Origin: Sphyrna mokarran | Taxonomy: Eukaryota | Reading direction: 5' to 3' | DNA: 64,000 nucleotides | Assembly: GCA_024679065.1 (NCBI GenBank) | Contig: JAGIQG010000019.1 | Location: forward strand, 14,570,001-14,634,000 | Shown here: in pieces, positions 5,510 to 62,652 of the stretch | Numbering within the stretch: position 1 is the first letter of the stretch | Layout of the letters: the number at the start of each line of letters is the position of its first letter | Notes under the pieces: model-generated | Told to the model about the DNA's origin: nothing | Databases searched by the model: none | The model's input: only the letters and a program-made list of their open reading frames with translations | Program-made: the position numbers and the translations under genes

Positions 5510-6638
5510 ACAAAAATACCATATGGTCAAACAGGCCATCTAAAATGGCAATTTGTAAAGCACTCTGGGACAATTGGGCAAAAACTAAAATGACAGGCTC
5601 CAGCCTAAAAGACAGAGATAAACAGGCTGCAACCCAACAAATGAATACACAGGATATGGGTCATCTCCAGGACAAAAGAGGCCTTCTGATCAAACTGGGT
5701 TGTTTACCAGACGTAGGGGTGCTGTAACCCCTTATTTGGGAGGGAGGTGTGTACTCTATGTGCCCCCAGCACCTGCAGACAGTGCCATTGGACACACACC
5801 GAAGGATTGGTGTGGCTGCACCTGATTGGACTTCATTGATCAGGGTGATTGGCAATGGCCAAAAAGGGCATGAAATCCAACGGGACATCAAGGACACTGT
5901 GCACCCAAGAATCTCTCTCTCTCTCTCTGAAACTATGAATGAGCTACAACAACGGTGACCATCACCAGCGACAACCAGCATAAGGACAACCACAGCCGAC
6001 AAGGAAGGAAGACCGGAGCCAGAGTTCCAGACCAGACCAAAGGAGCAGACTACACAGAAGATGACCGAGACCAGCGCACAGATAAAGGCCAATATCTGCT
6101 TGGGTACTTGCCAGTTATGCAAAGTTAAAGTCATCTATAGGACTTGAACAGCACGATAGCACAGTGGTTAGCACTGCTGCTTTACAACTCCAGGGACCTG
6201 GATTCGATTCCTGGCTCAGGTCACTGACTGTTTGCACATTCTCCTCATGTCTGTGTAGGTTTCTTCCAGGTGCTCTGGTTTCCTCCCACAGTCCAAAGAT
6301 GTGCAGGTTAAGTTGATTGACCATGCTAAAATTGCCCCTTAATGCCCTGGGATGTGTAGGTTAGAGGAATTAGTGGGTAAATATGTAGGGATATGGGGAT
6401 AGGACCTGGTTGGGATTGTGGTCAGTGCTGACTTGATGGGCCAAAGGGCCTCTTTCTGCGCTGCAGAGTTCTATGACTCTAACTCTAGTATTTTCTGTAA
6501 AGATAACTTACAGTTGATTGGATGGGTGATTATTGATTTTGTGTCTTAAATAAATATCGGTTGTACTAACAAGACGTCTACTCGCAGTTATTTGTCCACC
6601 GTATAAGGATTAAAACAGACTATGCAGCAGGCACAACA
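5510..6638 (+). mobile_element. 5' LTR of ERV (5' boundary uncertain; interrupted by SINE)
   Basis: Ends ...gcacaACA two bases before a PBS; AATAAA near 6548; immediately upstream of gag. Confidence 0.7.
6148..6485 (+). mobile_element. HE1-like SINE inserted in the ERV LTR
   Basis: cagcacgatagcacagtggttagcactgctgc head, V-core, CR1-type tail. Confidence 0.9.
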
Positions 6639-6640
6639 AC

Positions 6641-6658
6641 TGGCAACTCCGCCAGGAC
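6641..6658 (+). promoter_or_regulatory. Primer-binding site, tRNA-Arg(TCT)
   Basis: TGGCAACTCCGCCAGGAC vs recalled vertebrate tRNA-Arg-TCT complement TGGCGACTCCGCCGGGAC (16/18, both mismatches CG>CA). Confidence 0.8.
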
Positions 6659-6932: not shown

Positions 6933-8684
6933 ATGACAGGAAATAGCATAGAGACTGAGAAGTGTTTCATATGGGAAACAAAAATCAGGGAATTTATTAA
7001 GAAGAAAGAGTGATCCCTATGGGCACAATCTTGTGACAACACTGAGACGGGATTGGGATCCCTAGGGCAGAAGTACTGGGATGATCTAAGGAAAGTTCAG
7101 GGAAAACGGGCAGACAAAAATGAGAAAGAAATTGCCATTGTGAGCTGTTGAGGACAGCTGTTCGGAACAGAAAAAGAATTAATCACAGTTCATAAGGAAC
7201 TGGAATTGAAGCAGGCACAGGAGGAAAAGGAGGAGATTAAGAAACTAAGGGAACAACAGCAGGAGAGGATAGAACAAATAAGAGCCAAAAAGGACAGAGA
7301 GATAGATGAATTAAGGAGAACTAACCAGGCAAATTTATTACTTTTGGACAATTTTCAAACCTGGCATGAGAGAGCCTATCAAGACACCCAACGACAGTCT
7401 TGGCCAAAGATGAAGCTGAGCAGGCAGTAACCCAATTGCAAGCCAAGTGCTCTGCTCTACAGGCGGCAATAAAAACCTACATCAAGTCAGTAAACAACAG
7501 AGACAGGCAACTGCTGACCACTCCAAATGCCAGTGAGAAATTTCATGGCTGGAATTTCGATTATCGATTCAGAATGGATTTATGTGCACCTTCAGGACAG
7601 TAGAGAAAGAGGAGATAGAGAATGCGGATTGGGGAGAGTTAAAGGAGAATGCTAGACTTCACACAAACCAAAGATTGGGGTCCACCCCACCTTATACCCA
7701 CTGCGCCCCCAGATTCATCTCCAGTACTGACGTACATCGGGTAGGAGAGTCTCAGGGCCCACTTGTTACATATACAACCCCGTTTATAGTGGCTCAATTG
7801 GCCGAAATCACAAATAAAGTCATAACTTTTGAATCATCAGCGATCTGCACAATTCCTTTGAGGATGTTAGGCAGCAGAAGATAACGCATAGGTTAGATGA
7901 AAGGGAAGAGGTAAAGCAGACAGTCATGAGCTTAAGCAAGTCTGTATGGTCTGCCCTGCCAGCCCCTCAAAATATTGGGGAAGGAACCTTAAATAAAATG
8001 AAGGAAGCAATGTTGACTGCAGTAGAATTTAATAAAGGGGATCTTGTAGAGGGGTTAAATAAATGTAGACAGAGGAAAGGGGAACATCCGACTGCCTTTG
8101 CCAGTTGTTTGTGGATCCACTTCACAGGAGGATATGGGGAATTAGATTGGGCTAGATTAAATGAGGCTGATTCATCCAAATGGACTTGGACATTAGTGTC
8201 GCACACAACAGAGGAAGGCAAGAAAGTCTGCGCTAATTTTGACCCCACAGAGATCACACAAAATGAAGACTGCTTCTTAGATGCTTAGCTTGAGTCTGGG
8301 AACAGGAAGTTCAGGGACCCCCAATGTCATGGTCAGAAAGGAAGGCGAGCATGCTTCCCATGAGGGCTACTCAGGGTCTGGTATAGAGAAACGAGGGTAG
8401 ATGGGATCACCAAAACCAGAGAGATATAGCTCCACCTTTCACAGAGATAGAGGGACATGTTTTAATTGCAGGCAGCCAGGACACTTTGCGCGAGGTTGTA
8501 GGAGATCCCCGCTGCCGTACACACGGACCCTGAGACTGAGAACTACTGGCTCCTCTAGTTAGAACAGCTCCTCGATACAAGAGAGAACACCGTCCACCAC
8601 CGATTGAAAGTCCTGGTCATCCCATGCATACCATAAGCACAAGCCCTGTATCCAACTGTCCCTGCCAAAGGAACCCTAGATTGA
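6933..8684 (+). pseudogene. gag: ERV gag, disrupted
   Basis: ATG 6933; coiled-coil segment KQAQEEKEEIKKLREQQQERIEQ; capsid-like ORF 7926-8288; zinc knuckle CFNCRQPGHFARGC (CX2CX4HX4C) at 8458-8499; multiple stops and frameshifts. Confidence 0.85.
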
Positions 8685-9080
8685 CAGTGCCTGGCTTCCC
8701 GAACTTGGATCTGTAGCGCCACGTGGCATAGTGTAGGGAGACCCTAGTTAACCGGTGAGGTAACAGGCCACTTTATAGAATTCCTTTGGGATACCAGAGG
8801 CTCCCAAACTATCTTGAATGTATCAAAATTAAAAACAGACCTCCCTTGGTCAACTGTGGGCACAATTACACTCAGTGGATTCACAGGACACATGCAGAAG
8901 GGATGCATTACAAGCTATGTACAGGTCTGTCTACGTAACATAGTGTGTGACCATCTGGTGGTGTTCGTTGACCTTCCCTCAAGCGCTGAACATATCCTGA
9001 GGTCCGATTATATGAATAAATGTAATCTTTCATTTGATCCAACAAATCTGGATCTGTATTTGGCAGATGGCTACGATTAG
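8685..9080 (+). pseudogene. pro: ERV aspartic protease, disrupted
   Basis: EFLWDT(R)GSQT at 8778-8810 (DTG mutated), ITLSGFTG flap, HIL(R)SDYM = ILGxD motif. Confidence 0.85.
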
Positions 9081-9975
9081 CAGAGCTCCATCAATCATTC
9101 CAGTCAGGACATATGCTAATAGGATTAACACAATAGGGGAATTCTGGTTTGATCCCTTAGCGATTAGCAGTGATCCAGCCATCAGGGACATGCTTCAAAG
9201 AAACAACGGGGAGCTTGCGCAGCATAAACATAATTGTGGCCAGATACCTGGGGAGGTGTTTACTGAAGGGCCGAATCTGAAACCACAGAGACAATACGGT
9301 TTCGCCAAACAGTCAGAGGGGGTGGTAGCCAAACTCATTGATAGTCTATTACAGCAGGGGTTGTTGAGATAAGTGGCATCCACAAATAACAGCCTGTGAA
9401 GAAGGTAGATGGATCATGGAGGTTAACGGTTGACTACTGGGAATTAAATAAGGTTACCCCACTCTTGGCCCCCATAGTAGCCACAAGCCCCGTCACCATG
9501 ATGAGATGTGCGCAAAATTTTTCATGGTGCTAGATATTAGTAATGGCTTCTGGTCCATCTCTTTAAACCGGTCTTGTCTATACAAGTTTGTCTTTACTTT
9601 CCAAGGACAGCAATACAGTTGGATTTGTCTATCACAGGGTTTCCATAATTCGCCATTCATCTTTCACATGCGACTAGCTAGCGGACTAGAAAAATTTTCC
9701 TGACCCAAGTGCTTGTAGACAATTTATTGTTACAGACTAACACCAAAGAGGAGCAGATAACGTTGCTGGATGAATTACTCGCACTGCTCCACTCATTAGG
9801 CTGCAAAGTCTACCTGAAAAAGACCCAAATTTTGCAGCCCAAGGGTTATATACCTAGGTACAGTGATTACCCATGGGAAGAGCGAGATTGAACAGAAAAG
9901 AATACGCTACAGAGTGCACCTTCCGCTACCCTGACACATGTGTGCCTTTGATCTTTCCTAGGTCTAGTAGACAGT
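9034..9975 (+). pseudogene. pol: ERV reverse transcriptase, disrupted; RNase H and integrase core absent
   Basis: PQRQYG, VKKVDGSWRLTVDYWELNK, LDISNGFWSI, QYSWICLSQGFHNSP, VDNLLL (decayed YVDD), SFLGLV. Confidence 0.9.
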
Positions 9976-10400
9976 GCAAAAGCCTGATACAATATGCAGC
10001 TGCTCTGCATTCCAAATAACACTGAGAATTTTATTTCCAGTGCCAGTCATCCAATTTCAGAGCCAAATCGGGGTGCAAGAAAATCAGCATTCAAACTGAT
10101 TAAGCGGAAATGGAGGAGAACAAAAGCATCTTTCACAGTGGTTGTGATTTGTGCCAGAATCACTGATTGTACTCTAAGCAAAAATTCTAACTCACTATTC
10201 TTGTATTCATTTACTGCAGAATAGATGCAGTGCGGCCCTGTTATAAGAAAGAGTGAAAAAAGAAGGGTCCAACGAGTCATTGCATTATATCCAAATTCAC
10301 GCTAAATCAGGGCGTGTAAAATCGGGGCTTCACTACATTAATTGCGATAACAGCAGAAACTATATTGATCTCTTCAGGACAGTGATGGACGACAACAGAG

Positions 10401-11940
10401 ATGCAACCTACGATCTACCTCACCGGACTCATCATCGGGATAAGCATACAGGACATTCCAAGCAAGATGAACTTGTGATATCCAGGTTTGCCCCACCTGA
10501 CATGGGGGAATGTGAGATGGGTGTGTTACGGGCGCACTCTGAGTATAATGTTTGAATGTAATAACCAATGGCTGGTATACAAAAAAACCAAATGGCAGTT
10601 CAGCTGAATGTTATCTGAGTGTCACCATAGAAAAGGACTGGTAGGGATTTTCAAATAATGGGTGCTCTGAAATTGGATGACTGGCCAACAGCCCAGAGAA
10701 AGGATTAGAGCTCGGGCAGCGGTGTCCTGGGACACTTGTAGAGGGGGACTTTGCATTGAATGAAATAAGAACTGGACCGAAGTCAATCCCAGACCAATCC
10801 CCCTCGAATTGTTCTGAAGCCAACCCCGGTCCACAGAATGGATTGATGCTAAAACACACAGGGAATATCTTTATGACAACATCCACCACAAATTGGTACC
10901 TGTGGTGTGTGAATATCGCTGGGACTCAACTACCAGAATGGTGCACTCCCCAGTTTAAGAGATTATGCCTCTTCTTAACTTGCAGATTATTAGGAAGGAA
11001 GGTAGGAATGGATGAAAGACAGGAAAAATCCATGAGGGAGTCAGTCAATGACATGACCACAGCATACGGGCAGGGATAGCTATCAATGCCCTTGATTTAG
11101 CTGACAATAAACTTAGAGTTCTGACCCAACAGGTTAAGTAGACACTAATTTTATTAATGAGGACAATCAGCAAGATGCTGAAGGGGAGCTGACTGGGAAC
11201 ACAGCCAGCAGCCACATGGTCGCTGTATTAGAAGGATCACGCCAAAATAATCAAACAAATTAGAGGATGATCACCGACTACAGAACCGGACTTCATGTAG
11301 TGCATACGGACAGTCGATGGTAGTACAGCTAAGGGAAAACCTAGAGCAGGTACGCAGAGGACAGGTTCTGTCTTGGATTAGTAATCGACAGATGGAACAT
11401 CTATTTACACCTAAGGAACACCCTAGTTAACTGCTGCTGGATGCGACAGTTGACCAAGTCTGGTTCAATGACAACTGCAAAGGGACTCCAGGGAAAGCCT
11501 TAGGAATGATTGTAGTGTTCTCCATTATCACTGATGACTGGGTCGGACCGAGGGTCTTAGAAGTGGAGAATATAGAGACTATCCATGAGGATATGTGGAT
11601 AGGGCATGATGGCACTTTACCACACGCAATGGAGAAAAAAGTGATGCTCATAGGCACTACTCTGGACAGATGTCAACAAATTGATGAAATAATCACACGC
11701 CCGTACCCAGTTTACTTAAATGAGCATGCACTATGTGGCTTCACACCAAACACCAGCCTAAATTGCACAGTAGAAGCTTATAGCCTGGACACAGACATAA
11801 CTCGGGTAGCTTACAAGGGAGCAGGGAGATACTGTCTCACCACCTCCCTCAAACAATATCAGTATGGTGCGACATATTGTAACATTACAAACATTACATT
11901 CTGCATCAAACCAGATATACCAGTCAGGCTGGGCCTCATT
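10401..11940 (+). pseudogene. env: ERV env-like glycoprotein, disrupted, 3'-truncated
   Basis: Acceptor-like tctcttcag (~10369-10377); hydrophobic start MQPTIYLTGLIIGISI; fusion-peptide-like SVNDMTTAYG/GIAINALDL then heptad-like stretch; Cys-rich ORF 11506-11940 with N-glycosylation sequons (NTS, NCT, NIT). Confidence 0.7.
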
Positions 11941-12499
11941 CATAAAATATTAAAGTTTACCACTCTCTGGCTGGGAAAAGAAATGAGATACGAGTGGAGT
12001 CTTTTAAATAATAAATACTTCATACTTCTACGAACCAACATTAGATGCAATATTTCATGTTTTTGTCATAAGGTTCGACTTGTTAATGGTCAGACGAATA
12101 GTGCTTCAGGCAGCAAGGAAAAGGCACACGTTTTTCCATCAGTTCCGTCATTATATTTTAGTCTGAGAACAATAGTGTGTTCCATTTAAAGGAAAACTCT
12201 CAATAAAACCAGTTGTACTAAAGCAAGATAAGAATTCATTGCTGCAAATGTTCCAATCACCCATAACAAAGACAAGGACTAGAAAAGGTAATGTTCATTT
12301 TGCTTTTTTTTACAAGGTGGTATTTACTAAATGGCTGCTTCTTCACTCTGTCAGTTTGCTGTGTGCCAGTGACATCACTTCTAGTGAATATATGAATATA
12401 CTAATACATAGAGCTTAGTGTTGCTATCAATCAATATGAATACACATATATCAATCATGTCACTCCCTCCAGTGGAAAATCCTCATCTTATTCCTCCCC

Positions 12500-39330: not shown

Positions 39331-39366
39331 CACATAGCTGCAGTCCTGCTCTGCTTGTATGAGGAA

Positions 39367-39668
39367 TACACAGTAAGCAGTCTGACAACACCAGGTTTAA
39401 ATCCAACTGATTTATTTAATAGTAAACTCATAAGCTTTCAACTCTATGGCTTTCATCAGGCAAATAAGGTGTTCTGGTCTCCAACAGCACACATACCAGC
39501 ACAACACAATGTGTTGTTGGAGACCAGAACACCTCATTCGCCTGATGAAGGCCATAGAGTCAAAAGCTTGCGAGTTTACTATCAAATAAATCGGTTGGAT
39601 TTAAACCTGGTGTTGTCAGACTTCTTACTGTGTTTACCCCAGTCCAACGCCGGCATCTCTACATCATG
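39367..39668 (+). mobile_element. Penelope-like insertion with inverted 5' end and hammerhead motif
   Basis: ~120-bp inverted arms (39368-39491 / 39510-39633), ctgatga core, 3' end ccggcatctctacatcatg, TSD tgtatgaggaa. Confidence 0.85.
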
Positions 39669-50877: not shown

Positions 50878-53800
50878 TTTATTTTAGCTGGGAGGTTAGC
50901 TGGAGTGTTTCGGCAGGGTTTAAACTAATATGGAGGGGGGGGTGGGGAGACAGAGGGAACTGGGAGTGGGAGAGAGATGGGTGACAGGGTAAGTCCAGAG
51001 GGTAGGCAGGAGGATCAGAGAGGCCCTGAGGGTCTTCAATGCATGTGTTTTAATGCGAGGAGTGTGACTGGTAAAACAGATGAACTGAAGGTAATAATGT
51101 TCACAAGGAATTTAGAAGTGGTGGCGGTGACTGAGACGTGGTTAAAGGAGGGGCAGGCAATTGAATATTCCAGGGTATAAATGTTTTAGGCATGACAGAG
51201 GTGGTTTGAAGAGAGGAGGGGGAGTGGCGTTATTAGTTAAGGATTACATCATAGCAGTGCAGAGGGAGGGTGGTATGGATGATTTAGGAATTGAGTCGCT
51301 ATGGGTGGAGTTGAGGAATAGGAAGGGAGAGGTTACTATGTTGGGTGTGTACTACAGACCGCCCAACAGCCCGCGGGCCGTGGAAGAAGGAATATGCAGG
51401 GACATTTTAGATAAGTGTAGGAAGAATAGGGTGGTTGTAGTGGGAGATTTCAATTTCCCTGGGGTAGATTGGAAGGTGCCCAGAGCAGAAGGTGCGGATG
51501 GGGAGGAATTTGTACAGTGTGTTTGGAAGGGTCCTTGGAGCAGTATGTGGATAGCCCGACTAGAGAGGGGGCTATACTGGATTTGGTTCTGGGGAATGAG
51601 CCAGGGTAGGTGGTTGACATTGTAGTAGGAGAGCATGTGTCAAATAGTGACCACAACTCTGTCTGCTTTCGGATATTAATGGAAAAAGATGAAGCCTGCC
51701 TTAAAGGGAGGGCTAGATACAGCCAGATTAGGCAGGATCTTAAGGATACCGACTGGGATAAGCTGTTCGAGGGTAAGTCGACCCATGTGGGAGTCTTTCA
51801 AGGGAAAACTAAAATCTTTGCAGGAAAGACACGTGCCGGTAAGGGGGAAGGATGGGAAAGGTAGGGTTAGAGAACCGTGGGTTACTAGGGATATTGAGGG
51901 CCTGGTCAGGAAGAAGCAGGAGGCGTACGTTAGATCTAGGCAACTGGGGACAGAGACAGCGCTGGAAGAATATAGAGACTGTAGACGGGATCTTAAAAGG
52001 GGTGTCAGAAAGGCAAAAAGGGGCCACGAAATGGCTTTGGCAGGTAGGATTAAGGAAAATCCTAAGGCATTTTACTCCTATGTAAGGAGCAAAAGGATGG
52101 TTAGAGGCAAGATTGGACCTCTCGGGGACAGAGGAGGGGATCTATGCTTAGAGCCTGAGGGAATGGGGGAGATCCTGAATGAATACTTTGCGTCGGTATT
52201 CACGCGGGAGAGGGGCCTGATGTTTGGTGCCGACTTTGAGAAATTTGAGGACCCGTTAAAGGAAATAATCATTACGAGGGAAGAGGTGTTGGGGCTTTTA
52301 GGCAGCATAAAGACTTATAAAGCTCCAGGGCCTGATGGCATTTACCCCAGGCTGCTAAGGGAGGTGAGAGATGACCTTGCTGGGCCTCTGACGCAAATCT
52401 TTGTCTCTTCTTTGGACACAGGTGAAGTCCCAGAGGACTGGAGGATAGCAAATGTAGTACCGTTGTTTAAAAAGGGTCAGAGGGATAACCCAGGGAACTA
52501 TAGGCCGGTGAGCTTGACTTCAGTTATAGGTAAGCTAATGGAGAGGATTCTCAGGGACAGGATGTATGAACATCTGGAGCGCTGCAATCTGATCAGGGAT
52601 ACGCAGCATGGCTTCGTTAAGGGGAGGTCGTGCCTTACGAATCTAGTGGAATTTTTTGAAGAGGTGACAAAAATGGTTGATGAAAGACAAGCCTTGGATG
52701 TTGTCTATATGGATTTCAGTAAGGCGTTTGACAAGGTTCCTCATGGTCGGCTGATAGAAAAAGTGAAGGCGCATGGGATACAGGGCCAGGTATGTAGATG
52801 GGTTGAGAACTGGCTTGGGAGGAGGAGACAGCGGGTAGTAGTGGAAGGCTCTTTTTCCAACTGGAGGTCTGTCACTAGTGGTGTGCCACAGGGCTCAGTA
52901 CTAGGACTTCTTCTATTTGTGGTTTATATAAATGACTTGGAAGAGGGGGTAGGTGGTGTGATCAGCAAATTTGCTGATGACACTAAGATGCTTGGATTGG
53001 TGGGTACTGAGGAGCAGTGCCAGGCAATACAACAGGGCATAGATAGTCTGGTAGATTGGGCAGATAGATGGCAAATGGAATTTAATCCGGATAAATGCAA
53101 GGTGATGCATTTTGGCCGGAATAATGTAGAGGGGAGTTATAAGATAAAAGGAAAAACTATCCAGAGTATAGAGACACAGGGAGACCTGGGGGTGCAGGTT
53201 CACAAATCTCTGAAGGTGTCAGTACAGGTGGAGAATGTGATAAAGAAAGCGTATGGTATGTTAGCCTTCATAGGAAGGGGTATAGAATACAAGAGTAGGA
53301 GTCTGATGTTGCAAGGGTATAGAACGTTGGTTAGGCCTCACTTGGAGTACTGCGTCCAGTTCTGGTCACCGTACTACCGGAAGGATGTGGAGGCCTTGGA
53401 GAGAGTGCAGAGGAGATTTACCAGGATGCTGCCTGGTATGGAAGGGCTGTCTTACGAGGAAAGGTTGAACGCACTGGGTTGTTTTCCCTTGAAAGACGTC
53501 GGCTGAGAGGGGATCTATTAGAGGTATATAAGATTATGAGGGGTATAGATAGAGTAAATGGTGGTAAGCTTTTTCCACCATTAGAAATGGATAGAATGAG
53601 GGGTCATGGCCTTAGGGTGAGGGGGGCTATGTATAAGATGAATATTAGAGGGCAGTTTTTTACACAAAGGGTAGTGGGGGTGTGGAATGCACTGCCGAGT
53701 AAGGTGGTGGGAGCAGGCACGTTAGGGTTGTTTAAGGGTCTCTTGGACAGCCACATGAGCGGTCTGCAGATAGAGGGATATAGCAGGACTGTCTAAATAT

Positions 53801-57199: not shown

Positions 57200-57400
57200 A
57201 TTGGGTCAGGTGGGTGTGACTACAGCGTCCTGACAAGTTTCTTCAACTGGGGCTTATAATGCAACCTTGACCATCGGTGCTGTATCGCACCCACCCACCC
57301 CCTTTCCAGTTATATCGCAGCACCGATGGTCAAGGTTGCATTATAAGCCCCAGTTGAAGAAACTTGTCAGGACACTGTGGTCACACCCACCTGACCCAAT
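57200..57400. repeat. Inverted repeat, 83-bp arms, 35-bp spacer
   Basis: 57200-57282 is the reverse complement of 57318-57400 with 2 mismatches. Confidence 0.95.
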
Positions 57401-62309: not shown

Positions 62310-62652
62310 CAGATATGATGAGGTATAGTGAGGGCATGGATAACAGGTCTTACAGATATAAGGTGTAATGAGGGATATAAATAATGGGCCATATAAATAT
62401 GGTAAGTTGTACTGAGGGCATGGATAATTGGCCATATAGATATGATACAGTGTGGTGAGGGATATGGATAACAGGCTATATGAATATGATAAGGTGTACT
62501 GAGAGGCATGGATAATAGGCCATATAGATATGGTAGGGTGTAGTGAGGGATATGGATATCAGGCCATACAGATATGGTAAAGTGTAGTGAGAGAGATGGA
62601 TAACAGGCCATATAAATGTGATGCAGTGCAGTGAAGGGCATGAATAGAAGCC
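62310..62652 (+). repeat. Minisatellite, 43-44 bp unit, about 8 diverged copies
   Basis: Unit starts at 62408, 62451, 62495, 62539, 62583 (tgtagtgagggatatggataacaggccatatagatatggtaagg). Confidence 0.9.

Follow-up and report, generated by a model that had tools for sequence, protein, structure and literature searches.

F-related envelope proteins of retroviruses

F-related envelope (Env) proteins have been published for lokiretroviruses, which combine an Env related to Fusion_gly F0 with an R-x-K-R site and a dual RNase H (Wang and Han 2021, PMC7947760), and for foamy viruses, whose class Ib Env sets an added receptor-binding module on an F scaffold (Fernandez et al. 2024, PMC11468914); the RSV F fold is described as widespread, with further retroviral cases expected (PMC12583693). 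Of four scenarios for the origin of Env, Wang and Han favoured the one in which lokiretroviruses captured an F-like Env independently (PMC7947760). Chondrichthyan endogenous retrovirus (ERV) reverse transcriptases (RTs) are reported to fall mostly in clade III (10.1101/2023.10.17.562709); ERVs resembling snakehead retrovirus (SnRV), with env downstream, are known in the elephant shark (PMC4422223), and coelacanth ERVs are mostly SnRV-like (PMC4977317). The literature searched gives no fold for the Env of the SnRV clade.

We analysed a stretch of 64,000 nucleotides from the shark Sphyrna mokarran (genome size 2.77 Gb), hereafter the window, in which SINE-type repeats are abundant and which holds a provirus with the element order LTR-PBS-gag-pro-RT-env. 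This is very probably a dead ERV, likely of the SnRV (class III) clade, whose broken and truncated env is predicted to specify an F fold (class Ib). In the openly accessible text of the literature searched (including 10.1101/2021.11.23.469661, PMC12690878, PMC13709493, PMC12193657, PMC9040795, PMC5512871, PMC5210030, 10.1101/2023.10.26.564294 and 10.1101/2024.03.17.585361) we found no paper joining an F-type Env with an SnRV-like ERV, each being known separately, and no statement of an F fold for SnRV-clade or walleye epsilonretrovirus Env.

The provirus and the affinity of its Pol

The features of the provirus are as follows.

5522..6638, plus strand: 5' LTR, split at ~6134-6480 by a SINE-type insertion and ending in ...ACAACA
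6641..6658, plus strand: primer binding site, pairing at 16 of 18 bases with the 3' end of tRNA-Arg(UCU)
6936..8560, plus strand: broken gag, with a coiled coil (~7120-7400), a capsid-like region (7833-8288) and a CCHC zinc knuckle (8452-8502)
8748..9080, plus strand: likely protease remnant, with a degenerate D-T-G motif seen by eye
9214..9970, plus strand: broken RT, with LDISNGFW and QGFHNSP motifs (RVT_1, E 3.2e-08)
10062..10335, strand not assigned: unrelated interspersed repeat, ~270 bp long, that entered the spacer between pol and env
10401..11949, plus strand: decayed env of predicted F type, with an ATG at 10401 and truncated at the position matching residue 541 of a 685-residue open-frame paralogue
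11026..11037, plus strand: decayed furin site KSMR (RKRR at residues 225-228 of the paralogue)
11038..11099, plus strand: putative fusion peptide over two frames, aligning to paralogue residues 229-250 (hydrophobic, post-furin)
11100..11420, plus strand: broken HR1/central-helix region, with long helices in the paralogue model and a family-profile match
11431..11949, plus strand: Cys-rich beta region (equivalent of F domains I/II), frame still open

Two blocks of the 5' LTR align to 3' LTRs of the sibling proviruses L028, L029 and L030 (71-86% identity). Pairing at the primer site was scored with the CCA tail assumed; the matching gene L040 was called tRNA-Arg tct by ARAGORN, and a second match, L039, was called tRNA-Pyl. 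The gag region matches the Gag-like protein P0001 (E 3.7e-35) and holds one knuckle, above the Pfam cut-off (zf-CCHC, E 1.1e-05); the capsid-like label is suggested by position. A Pfam search of the putative protease remnant gave no match. The tether, RNase H and integrase have been deleted from the window copy, such that frog Pol P0002 matches over its residues 138-313 only and RT meets the pre-env spacer at 9970/9971. The repeat in that spacer is independent of the provirus, query bases 213-485 matching other sites at 72-86%. Elsewhere the window holds a CR1/L2-type LINE (51146-53796, plus strand; RT frame of 608 aa), near-perfect inverted repeats at 57200-57400 and 39360-39641 (83-nt arms at 98%; 132-nt arms at 89%) that are likely MITE-type elements, and a tandem array of a 44-bp unit (62417-62636).

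The least broken RT of the family, that of L021, shares 50-72% identity with the three RT pieces of the window and was set by hand against four references only, in the available RT alignment of the PMC7947760 supplement; the counts, which are approximate, gave ~73 identities with SnRV over 136 columns, ~53 with HERV-L, ~51 with FFV and ~49 with Loki-Pma, or ~54% for SnRV versus 36-39% for the others. The RT motifs here (LDISNGFW...LPQGFH.SP) are as in SnRV, whereas Loki RTs have PFGY.NSPA.FN. Among database Pols, models from frog and coelacanth come nearest (47-55% identity), Pol relatives bear the automatic name NYNRIN-like, and sibling copies carry a dual RNase H (tether plus RNase H). SnRV, too, primes on tRNA-Arg. 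By sequence the ERV likely belongs to the SnRV (class III) clade. With that clade, which includes CmiERV lineage I of the elephant shark (Han 2015, PMC4422223), it shares the RT motifs, the order pol then env and a cartilaginous-fish host; it differs in a cytoplasmic tail of ~25 aa, as against 136 reported for SnRV (PMC12193657). SnRV Env was not among the named or listed matches in sequence searches or in the BFVD structure search.

The best-surviving alternative, which we nonetheless regard as very unlikely, is that the element is a lokiretrovirus and the first in cartilaginous fish. An F-related Env, an R-x-K-R site, a dual RNase H and Pol relatives bearing the NYNRIN name would fit (PMC7947760), but the F-related Env and dual RNase H are not exclusive to lokiretroviruses. 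By eye, the Env of Loki-Bsp follows the motif order of the shark family (GP..G, G.IP, LP, C..VCP, LCG, C), which makes homology of the two Envs likely, the shark Env differing in an extra N-terminal domain of ~140 aa. RT motifs and hand identity (~36% to Loki-Pma versus ~54% to SnRV), however, side with SnRV and leave the lokiretrovirus reading unsupported. QGFHNSP has 0 occurrences in the available part of the PMC7947760 supplement, and in that study lokiretroviruses were not found in chondrichthyans, of which six genomes were screened, the Orectolobiformes row giving three screened and 0 positive.

Even less probable is a foamy-like ERV of the CmiFLERV type, in which Env would be F-related anyway. 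Shark FLERVs exist (PMC5512871), the nearest solved structures for both RT (foamy Pol, E 7e-28; then Ty3, 1.6e-17, and MLV, 8e-13) and integrase are foamy, and a foamy Env was matched in BFVD, though only at rank 36. The PDB, however, holds no SnRV-clade structure, so that foamy is simply the nearest solved relative; hand identity to FFV is ~38%, and the RT is by that count not spumaviral. Gag here has a CCHC knuckle, which foamy Gag is not known to have. The shark Env, at 685 aa, is shorter than foamy Env and of type I topology, with a single furin site before the fusion peptide and its extra domain at the N-terminus, whereas foamy Env has a leader peptide and a large inserted RBD; in common they would have an F scaffold with an added receptor-binding module (PMC11468914).

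The env family and its predicted fold

All the env motifs quoted in the sequence-only reading were found in their places: SVNDMTTAYG at 11041-11070 (frame 1), then GIAINALDL at 11073-11099 (frame 3), a stretch (11038..11099) that may have served as fusion peptide, and the Cys-rich string LDRCQQ...FCIKP within the open frame 11431-12189. The gene carries five in-frame stops and ~9 frame changes, the piece limits being set by eye. Its match to the open-frame paralogue by tblastn (E 1.7e-123, residues 71-541 of 685) and the 203 bits scored on 11251-11943 by a family profile built without the window rows, which found nothing on the reverse strand, indicate that the homology is not due to chance. 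Homology to the siblings stops at 11942-11949, where they run on to residues 600-683; within the window those tails align to the 5' LTR only, and the truncation is therefore real. In this comparison no HR2, TM or 3' LTR remained within the window, which bears out the proposal that the TM anchor was lost by truncation. The furin site has indeed decayed to KSMR, siblings L010 and L014 keeping RSRR at the same place. Neither CX6CC nor [QE]NR..LD nor an intact basic furin motif occurs in the three forward frames of 10400-11950, so the surviving env lacks CX6CC and an immunosuppressive domain (ISD), as had been noted. Interrupted by stops and shifts of frame and lacking a membrane anchor, the window copy has no function as a protein.

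The window's 173-aa Cys-rich frame has at least 151 genome matches at E up to 0.001 (29-82% identical), a lower bound as 150 of 507 candidates were scored, and an R-x-K/R-R match is present at 7 of the 14 env loci listed. Divergence of the window env from a close sibling is K2P 0.168, and the LTRs of sibling L030 are 0.181 apart; judged by sequence, the env family is old and inactive. One locus retains a natural open frame:

L007:1060-3117 (= L021:3001-5058), minus strand: open env frame of 685 codons; the surrounding provirus is old, its gag and pol broken

The protein of this paralogue is 44% identical to the window env over residues 71-541 across breaks and 57% over the window's last frame. 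Its layout runs from the furin site (RKRR) through the fusion peptide (a hydrophobic stretch directly after), long helices and Cys-rich beta region to HR2 and a strong TM (~626-661), with 19 Cys and 8 N-glycan sequons; nine Cys columns (paralogue 384-526) are conserved in 74-93% of aligned family rows. The window env keeps this layout up to the beta region only, the full F-type layout being present in the paralogue. An early fusion peptide had been proposed as an F-like trait; its position was correct, but ~228 residues precede it in the paralogue, and the F-like trait is the long post-cleavage subunit (457 aa) rather than an early peptide.

Among 1.84 billion representatives searched, 55 relatives were found at E up to 0.001. 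Names are attached to 8 of the 10 looked up, from sharks, a ray and the frog Pelodytes; Xenopus tropicalis appeared in another search. Over the Pol and Env searches together, named relatives of the element include Mustelus, Chiloscyllium, Pristiophorus, Heterodontus, Scyliorhinus and the ray Rhinoraja. In many copies this env lies between pol and a 3' LTR, and a frog Pol model continues directly into the Env family (Ig-like segment, 48% over 107 aa). The N-terminal ~140 residues are variable, being Cys-rich in the shark paralogue and Ig V-set-like in P0048 (E 0.045); in P0048, P0066, P0021 and the C-terminus of P0003 the Ig V-set-like domain replaces the Cys-rich one, a swap that by analogy is likely a modular exchange of the probable receptor-binding tip. 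A distant second env lineage in the same genome (L033, L034, L036, L037 and L038; 25-33% identity to the paralogue) also has R-x-K-R and pol upstream, and at least three subfamilies invaded the genome. Public shark gene models P0010, P0029, P0047 and P0057 join ERV pol/env pieces to host genes (symporter, fbxo15, Niban, cadherin-like) and are likely annotation chimeras.

The fold was modelled with AlphaFold on residues 140-620 of the paralogue, 57% identical to the window row (A2), and not on the window copy itself. The alignment had 54 rows, with 34 database proteins picked among the relatives found and 19 genome pieces (X at stops), the window's included, and left out chimeric gene models and several short pieces. 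The model (mean pLDDT 74.2, pTM 0.56) places two N-terminal strands before long post-cleavage helices, a confident beta-rich core (85-97) and an HR2 helix; pLDDT is below 50 in the fusion-peptide and HR2 stretches. Foldseek returned 242 PDB matches at E up to 0.001, and the 44 listed among ranks 1-50 are all F proteins (RSV, hMPV, hPIV3, PIV5, NDV, henipavirus), headed by post-fusion RSV F (E 1.6e-11, TM 0.39) and then Langya, NDV and hPIV3 F; TM-scores to F are 0.24-0.43 at an rmsd of 17-39 A (0.2-0.46 over all structural matches), and long helices inflate such matches. The 49 BFVD matches comprise lispivirus and fish-filovirus glycoproteins, baculovirus F, paramyxovirus F and three retroviral Envs, of WEHV-1 (rank 9, E 1.4e-10), WDSV (rank 33) and feline foamy virus (rank 36).

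Profile and language-model searches gave weaker support. Against the PDB, profile A1 placed hPIV3 F0 first (E 0.035), its residues 263-479 aligning across the Cys-rich region kept by the window, and profile A2 did not recover F0. In the ESM Atlas the top clusters for the paralogue (scores 0.95 and 0.93, low recognition) have Fusion_gly in 18-21% of members, and the window's own ORF had no usable match there. Neither Fusion_gly nor Baculo_F was found at the curated Pfam cut-off in any of 14 window pieces or the paralogue; below it, one of 47 family members matches Baculo_F (E 0.0011) and one GP41 (E 0.041). The structure search thus gives F proteins, as the sequence-only reading anticipated, and the Pfam fusion families it also named are silent. 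That reading had further taken a foamy Env match to speak against an F-type protein, which does not hold, as foamy Env is itself F-related (PMC11468914). We are highly confident that the predicted structure is a paramyxo/pneumovirus F fold of class Ib.

That Env instead belongs to class Ia as a divergent, gamma-like member, or is unrelated, and is matched to F through its long helices, seems most improbable. The low TM-scores, silent Pfam and single weak GP41 match among 47 members would be expected of such a protein; however, neither the window frames nor the intact 685-aa paralogue has the gamma-type hallmarks (SU CXXC; TM CX6CC and ISD), the post-cleavage subunit is 457 aa with a confident beta core, the F0 profile alignment lies in the Cys-rich beta region and not in helices alone, and no class Ia Env is among the matches listed. 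A lone mononegavirus F-gene fossil in or beside a retroelement, for which the best structural matches being mononegaviral might speak, is ruled out by the repeated LTR-gag-pol-env-LTR context and by the frog Pol model continuing straight into the Env family, leaving it next to no probability.

For the predicted class Ib Env, the order furin site, fusion peptide, HR1, Cys-rich beta domains, HR2 and TM is common to F proteins, and the predicted fold is shared with paramyxo/pneumovirus F (PF00523), baculovirus F (PF12259) and lispivirus glycoproteins; the shark Env differs in being retrovirus-encoded, in its 9-16% identity and in its extra N-terminal domain. By analogy with F biology (PMC11468914), furin cleavage of the ancestral protein at R-x-K/R-R would have bared the fusion peptide at a new N-terminus within a metastable trimer; HR1 would extend to a trimeric coiled coil that plants the peptide in the target membrane, with HR2, beside the TM, folding back and fusing the membranes. 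There being no separate attachment gene, the N-terminal ~140-residue domain (Ig-like in some frog relatives) is likely the receptor-binding module; class Ib proteins are described as carrying a modular receptor domain on an F scaffold (PMC11468914).

Distribution of F-type Env and an open-frame copy

The locus is a dead remnant, belonging to a set of at least 150, and matters for the question of how retroviral Env arose. The BFVD models of walleye epsilonretrovirus Env (Q9WHI8 and A4GTG3 for WEHV-1 and WDSV) have the same core (E 1.4e-10 and 5.5e-06) at 13-16% identity, differing from the shark Env in length (1159-1317 aa) and in an epsilon-type Pol; by these models exogenous fish retroviruses of class I have an F-type Env too. 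The pairing of such an Env with a canonical (SnRV-clade) Pol in sharks, rays and frogs would weaken the parsimony of independent capture, to which foamy Env and the walleye models add, and suggests that the entry machinery of the RSV/measles type is more widespread among aquatic retroviruses than recorded. That F-type Env is ancestral in retroviruses becomes testable by an Env-versus-RT tree. The most far-reaching version, in which F-type Env (Loki, foamy, SnRV-clade, walleye epsilon) came first and gamma/beta-type later, and the shark frame is the first F-type syncytin-like fusogen, we consider unlikely.

Slightly less doubtful, taken alone, is co-option of the open env frame by the host. Its provirus is old (LTRs K2P 0.138), insertions split gag, and six aligned blocks of pol (~1050 codons) carry 5 frame changes and 6 stops; at that rate ~7 disablements are expected in 685 codons and none was observed, in a copy selected because, of at least 151 env matches, its frame is the longest. 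Four close siblings carry 6, 7, 7 and 18 env disablements. From pairwise distances, dN on the open copy's terminal branch, counted from the split with its nearest sibling, is 0.004-0.005 and dS 0.03, against dN 0.02-0.04 on the terminal branches of broken siblings. The age of the LTRs would predict a higher dS; the shortfall would follow from gene conversion with a neighbour 245 kb away or from recombined LTRs. The frame is a candidate for co-option. The primer site of the open-copy provirus (L023:6150-6300, minus strand) differs from that of the window subfamily.
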